From a virus (taxonomy: Duplodnaviria; Caudoviricetes), in the IMG/VR virus record IMGVR_UViG_3300011409_000016, positions 1-24,973 of that record: a DNA stretch of 24,973 bases. One strand, written 5' to 3'. Below the pieces are notes generated by a model that saw only the letters and a list, made by a program, of their open reading frames with translations, made no database searches and was not told the origin of the DNA. Positions 5,521 through 16,823 of the stretch are shown here, one piece after another. How positions within the stretch are numbered: position 1 is the stretch's first letter; each line of letters begins with the position of its first letter. A program made the translations under genes and the position numbers.

Positions 5521-6048
5521 TTATGCCCTTATCAGGTCCCGCACACCGGTCACCCGGCCTTTCGGATAGCCCCATGCGTTTGGAATAAGATTGAACACCG
5601 CATCAGGAACGGTTTTGGCGAAGACCGAATCCTTGAACGTGAGTGCCACTGACCCGGCTCTGACGGACGTGATTCCGAGTGTCTCGATATCAGAATCCCC
5701 CGCGCGATCTGATACCATCAGTTGACGAGCGTATTCGGCCGTCGCCTGTTTAAGCTCATTCGGAATCACGTCATCTGGAACGTACTCCCATCCGTTTAAC
5801 TTCAGCATGCCTTGACGCGGCCAGAGCAATGCTTGAAGAGAGTCCGTGGGAAGTCCGGCCCACACCCACAGTCGATCCATCAGAATGGTCGCCCACAAGA
5901 TGGCGGCATTCTTCTGGTCGTCAGTCGCACTAGCCCACGTTGTTCCAACCGGCGGTCGATCGAGGTGATATTGATTTGCCTCTGCCAATGTTGGATACGC
6001 ATTAGCAGAGGCAGATCCCGGCGTGGTAACAAGTGTCGTGACGGGCAT
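5521..6048 (-). CDS. Head-tail adaptor (DnaT-like phage family)
   Basis: Start moved to ATG 6048, just after the upstream stop. ANAYPTLAEA and QALLWPR...IPNELKQATAEYA motifs are typical of this adaptor family. Confidence 0.82.
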   Translation of the reverse strand: MPVTTLVTTPGSASANAYPTLAEANQYHLDRPPVGTTWASATDDQKNAAILWATILMDRLWVWAGLPTDSLQALLWPRQGMLKLNGWEYVPDDVIPNELKQATAEYARQLMVSDRAGDSDIETLGITSVRAGSVALTFKDSVFAKTVPDAVFNLIPNAWGYPKGRVTGVRDLIRA

Positions 6049-6052
6049 GGCC

Positions 6053-9556: not shown

Positions 9557-11025
9557 ACTTCCGGTTCCGACGGTGGTGGTTCTTGGTATCCGGGTTTCCG
9601 TGGTGGAAACGATTGCGGTGGTGGCTTCGGCTTATTTTTCTCCCGTTCTTTTCTCCGTTTCTCGATAGCTTCGACTTCAGCATCCGCATCGATGCCTTCG
9701 CGACCCCATCCACCGGTAACCAGAATGTTCCACCATGTCTCGTAGCTGATCTCTTCGGCTTGGAGAGCGGCCAATGCGGCCTGGATGTCTTGCGGTGAGG
9801 CTTTGACATTCAAATAATCTTTGTTGAGTTCCACGCCCACTTCGGTGTCCTGTGGGAGAGCTTCGTTACCCATCCACCACGCAACAATCCGAAGCACCAA
9901 CGTAAATCCCAATTCAACAGACTGCGCCACGGTTCGGAGCGACGCATGTTCACCCGCATGGCGCATGGTGACCGCTGACGCCGTTTCTGGTACGATCGCC
10001 GAGTCCTCCAGGAGCCGTGCACCAAGCGTGGCCATTTGTTTCTTCTTTTCGTTCATGGCCGTGACGAGTGCACCGAGTCCTTCACCGCTGAACTCCAGCA
10101 TGCCGGCGGATCCCTGGATATCCAGTTCCCAAACTTTGCTCGGACCGATCGGCAAAGGAGAAGAATCCGCACCGGAGGCACGAGCACCGGCGACCCATGG
10201 CGTTGGTAGCGCCACGAGATGGAGTCCGTATTCGTAATCGACGCTGTTGCGCCAGTGACCGAGGTTGACATCCGCGAGATCGATAAGTGGCGGCTCCTCT
10301 AGTACCGATGTCGCATTCGATGCGCAGATGAATACGAAAGGAATGAACGGAAGTGCTTCACCTCTCCGGTTAAGCGTGACCGGTGTTCCGTGATGAACGA
10401 ATACATTCTTTTCCTTCTCCGATTTTGGACGCCACAACTGCACGATGCATTTGCCGTCCACCAACCGAAGTTCACGGTACTGTTCGATGACCTCGCTGAT
10501 AAACGGATCCGTCGGAACCGTCTGCTCGATCGATTCCCTCAGCACCAACATCGTCAACACTTCGGCTCCCTGGAGTCTCGAGGTTTTCCAGTTGACGATA
10601 TCTTCCGCAAGGTAGCCGATACAGTACGGCCGATTATCAATCGAAGGAACCGAGGACATGTCCACGAGTACACCGAACCGGCCGATGAGCATCACTTCGT
10701 TGCCGGTAGTCTGGGCAAACATCTCGAATGGCACATTGCCCAGTGTGATATCATCGAGATACGGTTTCATGTCTTCCGGGAATTCTACCTCCGGTGCTTC
10801 CTGGAAGATGGATCCCATCATTCCTTCGACGGTGCGCTTGGTGGCGTTATAGAAGCTCCCACGGCGACGGTAATCTTCGTTCTCTACGAGATCCTTGGCC
10901 GGAAGGAGCGGCACGTACTTCACGCCAGCCTTCAGGATGGCATCCCGTCCACCGATGCAGTCACGAAGTCGTGCCCACTTCACCTTCATGTCTGCAAAAT
11001 CTTTACGTTCAGTGTTCACGGGCAT
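9553..11025 (-). CDS. Portal protein (DUF4055-type)
   Basis: 490 aa; Y..RGSFYNATKRT, EDIVNW, IPFVFI, PPLIDLADVNLGHWRNSVDYE and LGARLL motifs; position before scaffold and capsid. Confidence 0.92.
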   Translation of the reverse strand: MPVNTERKDFADMKVKWARLRDCIGGRDAILKAGVKYVPLLPAKDLVENEDYRRRGSFYNATKRTVEGMMGSIFQEAPEVEFPEDMKPYLDDITLGNVPFEMFAQTTGNEVMLIGRFGVLVDMSSVPSIDNRPYCIGYLAEDIVNWKTSRLQGAEVLTMLVLRESIEQTVPTDPFISEVIEQYRELRLVDGKCIVQLWRPKSEKEKNVFVHHGTPVTLNRRGEALPFIPFVFICASNATSVLEEPPLIDLADVNLGHWRNSVDYEYGLHLVALPTPWVAGARASGADSSPLPIGPSKVWELDIQGSAGMLEFSGEGLGALVTAMNEKKKQMATLGARLLEDSAIVPETASAVTMRHAGEHASLRTVAQSVELGFTLVLRIVAWWMGNEALPQDTEVGVELNKDYLNVKASPQDIQAALAALQAEEISYETWWNILVTGGWGREGIDADAEVEAIEKRRKEREKNKPKPPPQSFPPRKPGYQEPPPSEPEV

Positions 11026-12385: not shown

Positions 12386-13600
12386 TTACAGCCGAAGTCC
12401 GCGAATGAGATACGCGGCATTCGCGGCCGGGTCGCCTTTCAGGGTCAAGACTTCTCCTGCATTCAGATCCCGTGTCTCCACGGGTGTTTCTGGATGAAGT
12501 GGATCATACACCGTCACACGGCAGGCATTCCGTGCGGTCACTTTCCCTTCTTTCAACACGCCAGATGGAGCCGTGAGAAAAAATCGACCGTCTGGACTAC
12601 TGGCCGCGTAATTTTTATTGAGGCCACGTCCCTCCTTTCCCTCCCAGAACTCATGAGTCCGGAGCGGATGAGGAGGATCGGCCCATGCATCATTCGATTG
12701 CGTCCAATCCTCTACTCCTTCTGGGAAGATCGGATCGATTCCTCGCACGGCTGTCATAATGGCATCGATGCCCGGTGTCTCCCAGAGGTTGGCCGGACGA
12801 AATCCGGTGGACCCTTCTTTCGGCACACCGTAGATGCCGGCTCCGTTGTGCAGGATAAAGGATCCCCCACCGCACAACATGCCTACCGCTCTGGACATAG
12901 CCAATCGCAACGGGTCCATGCAACTCGACACACTGGACAGTGGGCCTTTCCCTTCACCCAACGACGTAGGCCACTTGTAGTCCTTCACGTCCCATCCCTG
13001 GCGCACGAAACGCCAATCGAAATCGGTGGCCGTCCGATGGAGATGAACCGATGTCATATTGCCTGCACCTTTGGCCATCAACTCCTTCATGACACCGCCG
13101 TAGTCGTCGCCGTACCCCGGAGCGACGAGGAGCCCGGTGGCCAGGAGTTTCTTTCCCATCTTCACGATGAGATCAATGTCCTTGATGTTCCGCTCGTTCA
13201 CCGGTTCCAAGTACACGAACTTGTGTTCACGTCCTTTGATGATCTCCACCCACATGTCCGTCGTTCGAAGATGATCCCGATTGCTACCACCCGTCACGGT
13301 GAGTTGCGTTCGGATGCCGTACGTATCGTAGGCCCGGTCCACCATGCTAGAGGCTTTCTCCTGGTAGTCCGGCCATGTCGAATCCGTTTCGAGTCCTGAC
13401 CATCCCACGTCACCGAGGACGCGTTGAAATTCGTATCCATACTTTCGGAGATAGGCCCATTGCTGTTCAACTCGTTCCGGTTCGAACTTCCACCCACGAA
13501 GTGCCCAGAATAGAGTGCCTCCTAACGGAAAAAATCTTCCGGTGTCATCTCTGAATCCGCGGCCGTCTGCGCGGACGATCCCTGTACGACGGCGACCTAA
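12386..13600 (-). CDS. Glycoside hydrolase-like TIM-barrel domain (clan GH-A/GH5-like), probably reached by -1 frameshift
   Basis: Frame is open well upstream of the track's GTG (13408), reading GIVRADGRGFRDDTGRFFPLGGTLFWAL...GYEFQRVLG. YLEPVNE is a candidate acid/base motif; SVHLHR; PTSLGEG is a candidate nucleophile. Confidence 0.7.
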   Translation of the reverse strand, partial: LGRRRTGIVRADGRGFRDDTGRFFPLGGTLFWALRGWKFEPERVEQQWAYLRKYGYEFQRVLGDVGWSGLETDSTWPDYQEKASSMVDRAYDTYGIRTQLTVTGGSNRDHLRTTDMWVEIIKGREHKFVYLEPVNERNIKDIDLIVKMGKKLLATGLLVAPGYGDDYGGVMKELMAKGAGNMTSVHLHRTATDFDWRFVRQGWDVKDYKWPTSLGEGKGPLSSVSSCMDPLRLAMSRAVGMLCGGGSFILHNGAGIYGVPKEGSTGFRPANLWETPGIDAIMTAVRGIDPIFPEGVEDWTQSNDAWADPPHPLRTHEFWEGKEGRGLNKNYAASSPDGRFFLTAPSGVLKEGKVTARNACRVTVYDPLHPETPVETRDLNAGEVLTLKGDPAANAAYLIRGLRL

Positions 13601-15000
13601 AAACCTGTCGGCTTCGTGAAGATGTCCGGTGAGAATCGAGGAGGATTACTCTTCGTATCCAGAAAACCGTGCTGCACCAGTGTAACGCCGTCGTCCCACA
13701 CCAACGTCAGCTCTGCGCCATGCCCAGAAACTAATGAATCAGCAAGTGGGATCAGATGCGCAGGACGATTGTCGAATGTGCCGGGCACACCAACCACCTC
13801 GTCCCCCACGTCCGGTTTCAATCGTACTTCCTTGAACGCGGCATTCGTAGAGATCGCTAACGGTTTCATTGAACCTCCAGGTCCCGGTGTCGGGGGTTTT
13901 GGATTCGGCGGTTTGGGTTGATCCGGTATCGTACTACCCGGTCCGATGCGCGCCATGAGCAAATCAAAGCGGCCGTTCCTTATGCCGAAGTTCGTGGCCC
14001 AACACGCCCACTCTCCGGTAGGATCCACGCACGCTCGCAGTTGTCCGTTGTATTTCTCGTCATCGGATGCGTTCTCTGGGATCGATGCCATCAGGCCCGG
14101 AGCAATCACGCGTGGCGGACGGGCACCGCTGATGGAAAGAGCCAGGAGTTCGCCACTCCAATTCGAACTCAGCAACGCGAGATCCTCGCGGTCCCGACAA
14201 GCCACATGGCCCATCCCTGGTCCCCATCCCGGAGCCTGCCAAATCAATTCACGCTGGCTCCACACCTCGAGATTCCATTTGACCAGTGCACCGGGCTCGT
14301 GCTCGTCATCTTCTCCGATGACGATCTTATCCCCCACGTCGCAATGGCCTAAGGCACCCTCTTTATTGCTCACGATGCGATTACCGTCTCGGGCCAGATC
14401 GATAAAGAGATTTCGGGAATCTTCACCCACGCGTTCTTGCACCACGAGGTGATATCCGCTCTTATCAATCTGACATTCATCGATCACGCCGGTACTCCGG
14501 AAAAACTCCTGCTTCTGTCCGTCATCCACCACGGATCCGATGGCTCTGTAGTTCGAATCCTGAACCGTTGCCGAATGCACGCGATCGGTGCGGCTGCTGT
14601 GGGCCTGTTTGATGTACGAGCCATAATCCGAATGCAATCGGAAGACGGATGCGGATTGTCCGTTCGAAATATCAAAGGTACGGAGTTCATTGCCTTGAAT
14701 GAAGTAGAGGAGGTGGGGTTGGGTGTCGCTGAAATACCATCCTTCCGCTTCTCCCTCCATCGGCAGTTCCCGGTGCAATGAAACCGAGAGCGTGCGCTTG
14801 TCTACTGCCAGGATCATCGGTCGTTGACCCTTGCGTCCCGCGAGCACGAACAGCCGGTCGGCTCCGGCATGGTTGTTGATCACCGACCAGTAGGAGTAGA
14901 GCCGTGGCGGCACGCCGTTCGGCGCATTCGAGGTATTCGTCAAGCGAATGCCTTGCGTGGCCGGAAACGGAAACGGTCCCAAGCGATCCGGTACGTTCAC
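13597..15000 (-). CDS. Beta-propeller-like protein with Pro-rich linker and small C-terminal domain
   Basis: 467 aa; blade-like segments (ECQIDKSGYHLVV, ACVDPTGEWACWATNFG); PKPPNPKPPTPGPGG linker; GAGGA RBS; no signal peptide. Confidence 0.72.
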   Translation of the reverse strand: MNVPDRLGPFPFPATQGIRLTNTSNAPNGVPPRLYSYWSVINNHAGADRLFVLAGRKGQRPMILAVDKRTLSVSLHRELPMEGEAEGWYFSDTQPHLLYFIQGNELRTFDISNGQSASVFRLHSDYGSYIKQAHSSRTDRVHSATVQDSNYRAIGSVVDDGQKQEFFRSTGVIDECQIDKSGYHLVVQERVGEDSRNLFIDLARDGNRIVSNKEGALGHCDVGDKIVIGEDDEHEPGALVKWNLEVWSQRELIWQAPGWGPGMGHVACRDREDLALLSSNWSGELLALSISGARPPRVIAPGLMASIPENASDDEKYNGQLRACVDPTGEWACWATNFGIRNGRFDLLMARIGPGSTIPDQPKPPNPKPPTPGPGGSMKPLAISTNAAFKEVRLKPDVGDEVVGVPGTFDNRPAHLIPLADSLVSGHGAELTLVWDDGVTLVQHGFLDTKSNPPRFSPDIFTKPTGF

Positions 15001-15206: not shown

Positions 15207-15376
15207 TATTCATTCCGTTCTTGAAACTGTTTCCATTCATCTACCAGTGCGCGAATCTCTTCGACGAGTGCCCGGTACTCCGGTGTTTCCCGTTTCCGTC
15301 CCGTGGTATGCGGCAGGAGTGACAGTTTCACGTACGCTCGTTGGATCTTTCTGAGGAGCTCATCCCCATGATGCAT
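15206..15376 (-). CDS. Small hypothetical protein
   Basis: Helical ORF (MHHGDELLRKIQRAY...) bridging terL and the HTH gene with TAATG coupling; start uncertain. Confidence 0.6.
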   Translation of the reverse strand: MHHGDELLRKIQRAYVKLSLLPHTTGRKRETPEYRALVEEIRALVDEWKQFQERNE

Positions 15377-16823
15377 CCCGCACCCGTACTTCAGACACGC
15401 CACCGAGATATTCCAGGGATGCGAGCATCAACGCATCAGCATCATCGGGCGATGGCTTGTTCCGTCGCTTGATGTCATCCTTGGATTCCATTTGAATCTG
15501 ACCGCGAGAGTTCCGCTTGTATCGCAGGTCCACGAGTTGCGCGGCCAAGTCGTCATCGTGCTCATCGATGTCGATGTTGCCGGATTGAAACGTTTCGCGG
15601 AGTGCCCAGTACCCTTCGGCTCGGACATTCGCAAAATGTTCCTTATCCTTGGCCGGTCTCGAGACATTGACGCCCACGACCACCTTGACCCGCTGTTCCT
15701 GTGCGCGATTCACGACGCCACGACCGATACCAATCTCATCCACCTTCGCTTTCGTAATCGGTGCCTCGGGTGTGAGCGTTTTTCTGGTATGGATAAACGC
15801 GAGGAGCGTCCCGCACGTTTCCATGGTATCCGGATTCTGATCCCGCTGAATAATCCGGTAGCGTGGGCCTTCGCGTTCGCAGTAGGTGCTATTGTTCGAA
15901 CCGCCGCCGACATCCAATCCGAATTCATGCGGCAGTCCTGGTGGAAGCTCTCGGAGTTGCGCGTTGCGAATCCATTTGATGGGAATCAATCCGCCCACGG
16001 TCGTATCTGGGAACTGACCGAGCACTTTGCTAATCCAGAACGGATTCGCTTCTCCCCATTTCCGTCGCTTCTCCTCCACCCACATCTTTCCGACCAGGAG
16101 CGGCCGGAGTTTTTCCGGAACGGGTTCCTTCGTGAAGTTCGGCGTGTCAAAGGCAGAGATGGGGATGACATTCCATCCGGAGCCCGGATCGCAGATGCGG
16201 CGGAACTCCGTTTCTGGGTCATCAGGATTCCCGATGGCCAGGAAGCGAGAATCATCATTCGCAATAAGGGAGTCAGCCGCTTCCCAGAGTGGCGTGGCGT
16301 TGATGCCTCCGGCCTCATCAAAGATCACCAGCACGTAGCGCGCGTGGATGCCCTGAAAGGCAGCCGGATCCAAATCATCCGGTTTCATCCCGAACGCAAC
16401 GAGTTCTTCCTTACCGTTCGCCATCTGCATGAACCATTCCGTTTGATTCGTGCGGCCCATGAGAGAGGCTTTCCCGTGCGCGCGATTGATCTCTCTCCAG
16501 AGAATGTTACGGACCTGTCTGCCGGTTGGTGCTGAGGTCACGACAAAGGCTTCACCCACCGGATGATTGCAGAGCCAATGGGATCCTATACGAGCGGCCA
16601 GGAAACTCTTACCGGAGCCGTGGCAACTCGGAACGGCCGTTTTCCGATTATCCCGCACGGACTCCATGATCTCGACCTGTTTCGACCAGAGATGCTCTTT
16701 CAGCACGTTGCGGATCCAACCGGGCCCATCCCGCAGATAGGTCCGGCGTGCAAGTTCGGCTTGTATGGCCGCAAGCTCTCGAACCGGATCACGATGCTGC
16801 GAGAGGAGCGCAGATGCGGGCAT
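15360..16823 (-). CDS. terL: Terminase large subunit
   Basis: Walker A SCHGSGKS, Walker B VLVIFDEA, coupling motif IGNP, nuclease GLDVG and SPDDADAL. Confidence 0.96.
   Translation of the reverse strand: MPASALLSQHRDPVRELAAIQAELARRTYLRDGPGWIRNVLKEHLWSKQVEIMESVRDNRKTAVPSCHGSGKSFLAARIGSHWLCNHPVGEAFVVTSAPTGRQVRNILWREINRAHGKASLMGRTNQTEWFMQMANGKEELVAFGMKPDDLDPAAFQGIHARYVLVIFDEAGGINATPLWEAADSLIANDDSRFLAIGNPDDPETEFRRICDPGSGWNVIPISAFDTPNFTKEPVPEKLRPLLVGKMWVEEKRRKWGEANPFWISKVLGQFPDTTVGGLIPIKWIRNAQLRELPPGLPHEFGLDVGGGSNNSTYCEREGPRYRIIQRDQNPDTMETCGTLLAFIHTRKTLTPEAPITKAKVDEIGIGRGVVNRAQEQRVKVVVGVNVSRPAKDKEHFANVRAEGYWALRETFQSGNIDIDEHDDDLAAQLVDLRYKRNSRGQIQMESKDDIKRRNKPSPDDADALMLASLEYLGGVSEVRVRDASWG

Follow-up and report, generated by a model that had tools for sequence, protein, structure and literature searches.

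The window analysed here is the whole of virus record IMGVR_UViG_3300011409_000016 (24,973 bases, 43% complete), which carries late genes of a siphophage on its minus strand. It includes a pair of overlapping open reading frames (ORFs): ORF1, which ends at a shift-prone sequence, and ORF2, which is open in the -1 frame relative to ORF1 and lacks a normal start codon at the junction. The features that concern this junction are:

13597–15000, minus strand: ORF1, GTG start at 15000, 467 amino acids (aa); propeller, Pro-rich linker and small beta-domain
12386–13600, minus strand: -1 extension, 404 aa; predicted (beta/alpha)8 barrel and C-terminal beta-sandwich, GH140-like, with clan GH-A layout
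13597–13606, minus strand: slippery site A GGU UUU followed by the stop UAG (ACAGGTTTTTAR in 5/5 loci)
13556–13593, minus strand: predicted pseudoknot or two competing hairpins (stem 1, 13593-13588/13567-13562; stem 2, 13575-13570/13561-13556)

ORF1 terminates as ACA GGT TTT TAG (stop at 13599-13597), while the -1 frame is open from 13645 to 12386. The first ATG, GTG or TTG of this frame is GTG 13408, located 64 codons past the slip codon. A -1 slip reads TTA GGT CGC and gives a joined product of 871 aa. These details (the ORF1 end, the open -1 frame, its start-poor stretch and the stems) had been described in an initial annotation of this DNA and were all correct on re-check. TTTTTAR occurs a single time in the window, both strands counted. 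We consider it probable, with good confidence, that programmed -1 ribosomal frameshifting at this site yields proteins of 467 and 871 aa. One gene thus likely gives a short and a long product, the long form adding a predicted glycoside hydrolase domain.

Related loci were compared after removal of redundancy: L001, L003, L004, L009, L030 and L038 are one contig and were counted once, as were L031 and L033, which encode the same protein; L002, which begins inside ORF2, was left out; and L006, the same phage as the window, was not counted as a separate locus. The break is kept in 5/5 loci (window, L004, L005, L007 and L008) and ORF2 is intact in each. Identity of the -1 frame to that of the window is 87% for L004 and L005, 74% for L007 and 66% for L008, and L007 and L008 are 59% identical to each other; at the DNA level, the window and L008 are 66% identical over the aligned part. 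The shift-prone sequence ACA GGT TTT TAR is kept at the nucleotide level in 5/5 loci, with UAG as the stop in 4 loci and UAA in 1. The initial annotation had proposed to compare homologues for a frame break with slippery site or for in-frame fusion: the four related loci keep the break with its site, and two relatives fuse the small beta-domain to the barrel in frame.

Differences between the window and L008, counted by codon position, are 4/1/22 in the ORF1 frame before the break and 8/7/22 in the -1 frame after it, and both frames are shown by such sequence comparison to be under purifying selection. Beyond this, ORF2 codons 9-15 form a row of 7 invariant codons in the 5 loci, the longest such run elsewhere being 3. 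Among degenerate codons whose amino acid is invariant, 8/13 are identical in the first 17 ORF2 codons versus 28/184 elsewhere (Fisher p 4e-4, approximate because the loci are related). Likewise, ACA GGT TTT is invariant, against 36/180 in ORF1. P0073, ending in EGF, comes from a contig of 14,936 bases, and so does the truncated barrel P0004; the two probably represent a sixth broken locus. Among viral loci with a propeller, a barrel was present within the fetched flanks in 1/19, the already-known one, and a search of viral contigs for the junction pattern matched only that same contig.

The region following the site has the same order in the 5 loci: a 6-nucleotide (nt) spacer, GCCGTC, a loop of 9-12 nt, TCCGCG, CA, GACGGC and CGCGGA. 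Stem 1 (GCCGTC, starting 6 nt after the Phe codon) pairs with GACGGC and stem 2 (TCCGCG) pairs with CGCGGA, so that the GCCGUC/GACGGC stem and the competing UCCGCG/CGCGGA pairing noted in the initial annotation were both located at the spacing it gave. Stem pairs are unchanged (12/12) in the 5 loci. Bases differing between the window and L008 amount to 0/24 in the stems, 5/12 in the long loop and 2/3 in the free spacer, and L005 carries a 3-nt deletion within the loop. The diverged spacer and loop between invariant stems therefore argue against a recently copied block. In synonymous redraws with the protein fixed, two crossing 6-bp stems were obtained in 620 of 100,000 and at least one 6-bp stem in 24,492. 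The double 6-bp stem is not rare alone, with 9 starts on the window minus strand; it is present in 0/6 in-frame loci, two of which have 5-bp versions. Other compact double 6-bp stems on this strand, at 2388-2389, 7598, 7659, 10759-10760, 18955 and 20597, are probably due to chance. A scan of 13400-13800 against Rfam gave one chance-level match only (E 3.6).

Known -1 frameshift sites have a spacer of 5-9 nt and tolerate deviations in the first codon (PMC5009743). The spacer counted from UUU is 6 nt in 5/5 loci, inside this range. The site does not fit the canonical X XXY YYZ pattern, and A GG is absent among the tolerated variants in the part of PMC5009743 consulted. Two -1 routes are distinguished in PMC6771820: slippage during translocation against a structure, and one-tRNA slippage with an empty A site. 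Here, the 6-nt spacer suits the translocation route, while the adjacent stop and the poor re-pairing of the Gly tRNA suit the one-tRNA route; the two are indistinguishable because both yield the same peptide G-F-L-G. The stop directly follows the slip codon in the 5 loci, an arrangement that would point to the shifty-stop class, yet protein P0071 ends G-F-R and the spacer suits the translocation route.

In the mechanism that we propose, the predicted pseudoknot 6 nt downstream would stall translocation of the Gly/Phe tRNA pair, and tRNA-Phe would re-pair from UUU to UUU at -1, with poor re-pairing of the Gly tRNA. Slow termination at UAR may add a one-tRNA route, the stop being a likely helper. 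A share of ribosomes would bypass the stop and resume at UUA, giving ...PTGF-LGRRRTG.... The initial annotation had tRNA-Phe re-pairing at -1 while paused at UAG; the re-pairing itself is retained, whereas pausing at the stop is only one of two routes in view of the 6-nt spacer. The first -1 codon, UUA, is rare (TTA accounts for 5/212 Leu codons in six large genes), which could limit or tune the frameshift yield.

The startless codons after the break belong to the barrel. As many as 54/62 barrel relatives align from P0002 residue 28 or earlier, that is from an R-x-G-[IV]-V-R motif just after the break, of which the Arg is kept in 44/48 and the Gly in 47/48 aligned sequences. GTG 13408 is GTC in L004 and lies after an invariant strand-2 Arg (13423). 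The initial annotation had taken the 64 codons before 13408 for the start of a barrel, and they are indeed part of the domain, since 54/62 relatives align from there and the strand-2 Arg is present in 48/48. The four closest barrel relatives are all called N-truncated, from internal codons. The barrel is shown by these alignments to need residues encoded before any normal start; the -1 frame thus overlaps the ORF1 end without a start of its own and is needed for a conserved product.

The two in-frame relatives have a similar arrangement. A beta-domain profile made from 8 ORF1 relatives hits the N-termini of 2/62 barrel proteins, P0016 (E 5.5e-8) and P0008 (E 6.1e-7), with 30% identity in pairwise comparison. 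P0008 is encoded in frame by a single gene that has its own start and lies in the tail/lysis region of a phage (L031, L033). The linker from the last strand motif to R-x-G counts 13 and 15 residues in P0008 and P0016 and 12 in the shifted product. Among the 8 aligned beta-domains, 6 end in G-F or G-F-R.

The extension was modelled with a mean confidence (predicted local distance difference test, pLDDT) of 95.5. As proposed in the initial annotation, the predicted fold is a GH-A-like barrel. Its closest solved structure is the GH140 apiosidase 8t9w (VIA Z 31.9, root-mean-square deviation (rmsd) 2.9, 362 aligned), followed in VIA/Foldseek comparisons by BT1012/5msy (31.4), both about 5 Z above GH164 (25.1) and GH5. 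Three sites are of particular interest, numbered as in the joined protein:

13421–13423, minus strand: strand-2 Arg R527, invariant in 48/48, 5′ of the first canonical start
13193–13198, minus strand: Asn-Glu N602-E603, predicted acid/base, invariant in 48/48; strand 4 ends at model residue 133
12953–12955, minus strand: Glu E683, predicted nucleophile, invariant in 48/48; strand 7 at model residues 211-213

According to the secondary structure of the model and the 48 aligned sequences, invariant Arg, Asn-Glu, His and Glu follow strands 2, 4, 6 and 7, respectively. This Arg/His strand pattern is as in GH5. The two catalytic Glu, which the initial annotation suggested placing by structure prediction, come after strands 4 and 7 of the predicted (beta/alpha)8 barrel, where clan GH-A enzymes have their catalytic acids (PMC7105311). 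As judged from the model, the barrel would work like a retaining glycosidase, but it is not filed in GH140. Similarities to GH140 apiosidases include the barrel plus C-terminal beta-sandwich over nearly the whole length, the acids after strands 4 and 7, and Atlas neighbours carrying PF13204 (score 0.95). The barrel differs from them by its 8-12% identity, its phage-borne nature and its exchangeable N-terminal modules; there was no match to PF13204 or any other Pfam family at E 0.01, nor to PDB sequences at E 1 with profile A3. The catalytic pair of GH140 is Asp/Glu. The closest viral models of the barrel are uncharacterised phage proteins. Within the barrel family (P0007-P0064), N-terminal modules are swapped, including DUF7910 (P0019), DUF4214 (P0029) and the beta-domain (P0008, P0016), with forms up to 1044 aa.

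Programmed frameshifting was weighed against several other explanations. The main alternative of the initial annotation, a one-base assembly error or a recent inactivating mutation leaving a pseudogene, could be invoked because the site is a homopolymer run, and the comparison made here used contigs, not raw reads. Contigs from 4 of the 11 listed runs were compared: those of X1, X2 and X3 span 13595-13606 with no indel listed, X1 and X2 possibly being the source data of the window, and the listed X4 pieces stop short of spanning. The initial annotation wanted reads inspected for a sixth T; contigs of 3/4 runs bridge the site, with no six-T form among the records listed. The 11 listed runs include no RNA data set holding the window, a result that bears in neither direction on expression. 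L006, 99.9% identical to the window, has the identical break, and the four diverged loci share it with ORF2 intact in all. The break is therefore not an assembly error, as contigs bridge it unchanged and diverged loci share it; the chance of such an error or recent mutation is practically nil, and the conservation of break, site, spacer and stems in 5 loci supports the earlier reading of a -1 frameshift. Alternatively, the barrel could be a separate gene, translated from a non-canonical start (ATT 13636 or ATC 13579) or by ribosomes that reinitiate past the stop of ORF1. An ATT is present at -12 in 4/5 loci and an ATC or ATT at about +7 in 5/5, and stand-alone family members with short leaders exist (P0017, P0027, P0030). 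However, the -12 ATT is missing from L005, the substitutions preceding the break are distributed according to the ORF1 frame (4/1/22), a +7 start would drop the family Arg (44/48) and Gly (47/48), no Shine-Dalgarno sequence is present at the usual spacing, and GTG 13408, changed to GTC in L004, lies past the invariant Arg. A separate gene would also leave the invariant GGT TTT unexplained, and we regard it as quite improbable.

Recoding by another route, with ribosomes hopping by +2 or with RNA polymerase slipping on the T5 run and inserting an extra U, would suit a homopolymer run with a poor tandem heptamer, and a +2 hop lands in the same frame. It appears highly improbable, given that a structure 6 nt downstream is a -1 signature and that UUU re-pairs perfectly at -1. 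Moreover, five T are short for polymerase slippage, which weighs against that variant. It could also be argued that the block is conserved as a linker through which modules recombine, or simply for the protein it encodes, with slippage as an incidental leak. Consistent with this, the loci are mosaic, the L005 beta-domain being only 48% identical to that of the window with an unchanged junction, and covariation is absent. Nevertheless, spacer and loop have diverged between the invariant stems, unlike in a recently copied block, and the barrel is intact and selected while no other expression route is available to it, so that the chance of this explanation is very remote.

Several observations nonetheless weigh against programmed frameshifting. 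The five loci are mosaic relatives and not fully independent. A GGU UUU departs from X XXY YYZ and the Gly tRNA keeps one pair at AGG. Two of the 8 beta-domains end differently (P0068 with PPF, P0074 with VRP) and P0071 has one extra codon before the stop. Concerning the RNA structure, no compensatory change is found in the 12 pairs, i.e. there is no covariation; folds computed as nested structures gain no stability over shuffled sequences (z -0.82 to +0.25); the single hairpins reach only -9.9 and -10.6 kcal/mol; the stem strands abut, with no loop between the two 3′ strands, a non-classical topology; and the stem bases also encode conserved residues. Finally, an in-frame protein with propeller, beta-domain and barrel was not found: 0/62 barrel relatives match the propeller, and a search for longer proteins gave 3 barrel fusions among the matches listed, none with this propeller. 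The search for ORF1 relatives covered 256-818 aa, a range outside which an 871-aa in-frame form falls.

The short product of ORF1 is itself modular:

13933–14988, minus strand: beta-propeller, residues 5-356; model pLDDT 91.4; closest solved fold oligogalacturonate lyase (PL22)
13870–13932, minus strand: Pro-rich disordered linker, about residues 357-377; pLDDT <50 for 356-376
13600–13869, minus strand: 90-aa beta-domain, residues 378-467; predicted to form a homodimer; homologue of the domain at the N-terminus of P0008/P0016
13867–13878, minus strand: GGAGG 4 nt before an in-frame ATG (Met378), kept in L004, L005, L007 and L008

The initial annotation described ORF1 as a beta-propeller. The predicted model and its PL22-fold match agree with this, although the propeller is not the whole of ORF1, which also includes the Pro linker and the 90-aa beta-domain that relatives fuse in frame to the barrel. 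PL22 oligogalacturonate lyases (3c5m, 3pe7) are the best propeller fold match (VIA Z 26.2, rmsd 3.8, 324 aligned), 3.4 Z above the next unrelated (WD40) rows at 22.8. In contrast to these enzymes, identity is 11-12% and the PF14583 profile of the family gives no match, and the Atlas score of 0.81 is a lead only. Propeller profile A6 gave nothing meaningful against PDB sequences. In 65 relatives, 18 propeller positions are invariant, including H219, D221, H265, Y317 and R344. In view of these positions and of PL22 as best match, the propeller may bind or cut sugars itself. The label 'non-catalytic' first attached to the short form is thus unsupported, its best fold match being a lyase and polar residues being invariant.

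The 90-aa domain was modelled as a dimer with a score of 0.55, versus 0.06 for the best of 3 controls; the mark used for this score is reached by 20/30 solved pairs and 1/23 single chains, counts that are roughly valid as an own alignment was used. The runs agree in at least 90% of contacts, with pLDDT of at least 84, and the contact residues are 6-10 and 78-87. The models support dimerisation of this domain. Since both the 467-aa and the 871-aa products carry the predicted dimerising domain, mixed dimers would form, combining propellers with a limited number of hydrolase heads. In L005, the beta-domain (5760-6049) is close to that of P0071 and 48% identical to that of the window, while the propeller is close to the window's; at the sequence level, this is a module exchange reaching up to the slippery site.

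The spacing between GGAGG and ATG at Met378 equals that at the ORF1 start, where GAGG is located 4 nt 5′ of the GTG. The pattern G-G-x-(x)-M/V at the module boundary recurs in P0069, P0070 and P0072, where the C-terminal module behind it is a different, helical one. Met378 is a possible internal start, giving 90- and 494-aa forms if used, or a fossil of gene fusion, as judged from these sequence features; the 494-aa form would match P0008/P0016 in size.

We compared the locus with known recoding systems. Phage -1 extensions (T7/T3 gene 10A/10B, Lactobacillus phage A2, Listeria A118/A500/PSA) similarly give a short and a C-terminally extended product, and related extension domains are in frame or out of frame in different phages (PMC5009743). 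Unlike in T7-type systems, neither PHROG nor Pfam matches mark ORF1 as a capsid or tail protein, and what is added is an entire predicted enzyme (404 aa, with a barrel) instead of an immunoglobulin-like domain; T7 shifts at G GUU UUC, whereas here a stop follows A GGU UUU. Lambda G/GT resembles the locus in its -1 shift and two products in a tailed phage. However, the proteins are unrelated, ORF1 and the barrel having no Pfam/PHROG match to tail chaperones, the locus lies between terminase and portal, the site abuts the stop and a pseudoknot is predicted. The true G/T pair of the window, a separate tail frameshift site as anticipated in the initial annotation, is at 2933-2188 on the minus strand (phrog_344, PF06223). 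It has two candidate -1 sites, G AAA AAG and A AAA AAC (2595-2589 and 2580-2574), both leading into an open T frame and ordinary.

In the IS3-family orfA/orfAB shift, too, a catalytic domain read in the -1 frame is joined to an upstream module, with a 3′ structure as stimulator (PMC5009743), but this shift concerns a transposase with A-rich sites instead of a glycoside hydrolase with GGU UUU. The fucA1 gene of Saccharolobus solfataricus encodes a glycoside hydrolase needing a -1 frameshift (PMC9855744). In this archaeal chromosomal gene the break interrupts a single enzyme (81 + 426 aa; site A AAA AAT), while here it separates folded domains and leaves a short product that is complete, with two domains. 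Phage frameshifts annotated so far nearly all belong to tail chaperones, which make up 2397/2476 of the joined genes in SEA-PHAGES (PMC10885494), or extend capsid or tail proteins. A search of paper listings and abstracts, with most subscription papers outside its scope, brought up no work on this family and none on a phage glycosidase produced through a frameshift.

As for the surroundings of the pair, it is preceded by:

15360–16823, minus strand: terminase large subunit, 5′ of ORF1 in the gene order

After the barrel frame come a lipoprotein-like gene, portal, scaffold, capsid, connectors, tail tube and the G/T chaperone pair. ORF1 and the -1 frame match no Pfam or PHROG family at E 0.01, tblastn with each ORF gave no match in INPHARED phages, and a promoter scan revealed nothing exceeding chance. 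The propeller/barrel pair sits 3′ of the terminase in four loci (window, L004, L005, L007). Its neighbours differ in L008, where small genes of membrane-like and phrog_3108 type surround it and a lipoprotein-like gene follows. In other phages, separate propeller or barrel genes are found near terminase/portal, holin or endolysin genes (36 selected ORFs scanned). The N-terminus of the 132-aa ORF directly after the barrel (12373-11975, minus strand) resembles a signal sequence closed by a Cys, which by eye looks like that of a lipoprotein; comparable ORFs come after the barrel in L004, L005, L007, L008 and L031, with no family match. A small excisionase-like helix-turn-helix gene (15206-14997, minus strand) lies between terminase and ORF1 and overlaps the ORF1 start; a gene resembling it is also 3′ of the terminase in L015. 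A phrog_3108 gene (L008:3789-4280, L022:5930-6475) adjoins the propeller gene in two unrelated phages, at the place where others have the endolysin, and by this analogy its product is possibly an unannotated lysin.

Most of the relatives from named bacteria belong to Vicinamibacterales, and Acidobacteriota are common in the top Atlas clusters; from this we infer an Acidobacteriota (Vicinamibacteria) host. A signal peptide was not obvious in ORF1 by eye, and the protein would therefore act from the virion or after lysis. Our best guess at the role, to which we give about even odds, is that the protein attacks a polysaccharide of the host surface or matrix, either as part of the virion or when the cell lyses. 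An extended scheme, which we think unlikely, would have one gene encode four proteins, beginning at GTG 15000 or at ATG 13869 and ending at the stop or after the -1 shift; through the dimerising module common to all four, they would assemble into mix-and-match lyase/glycosidase complexes whose ratio is set by release factor versus rare UUA tRNA behind a non-classical pseudoknot; if true, a PL22-like lyase and a glycosidase of a new family would act on host glycan.

If programmed frameshifting does occur here, a whole enzyme domain would be switched on in an accessory gene, at a type of site missed by searches built on heptamers. Such genes are misannotated: in the four entries closest to it in the databases, the enzyme has been cut short by gene callers. 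The cassette of about 55 nt would provide a compact and testable bacterial recoding element, and the locus would bring together an unclassified GH140-like glycosidase family and a PL22-like propeller family in phages of a barely studied host group.

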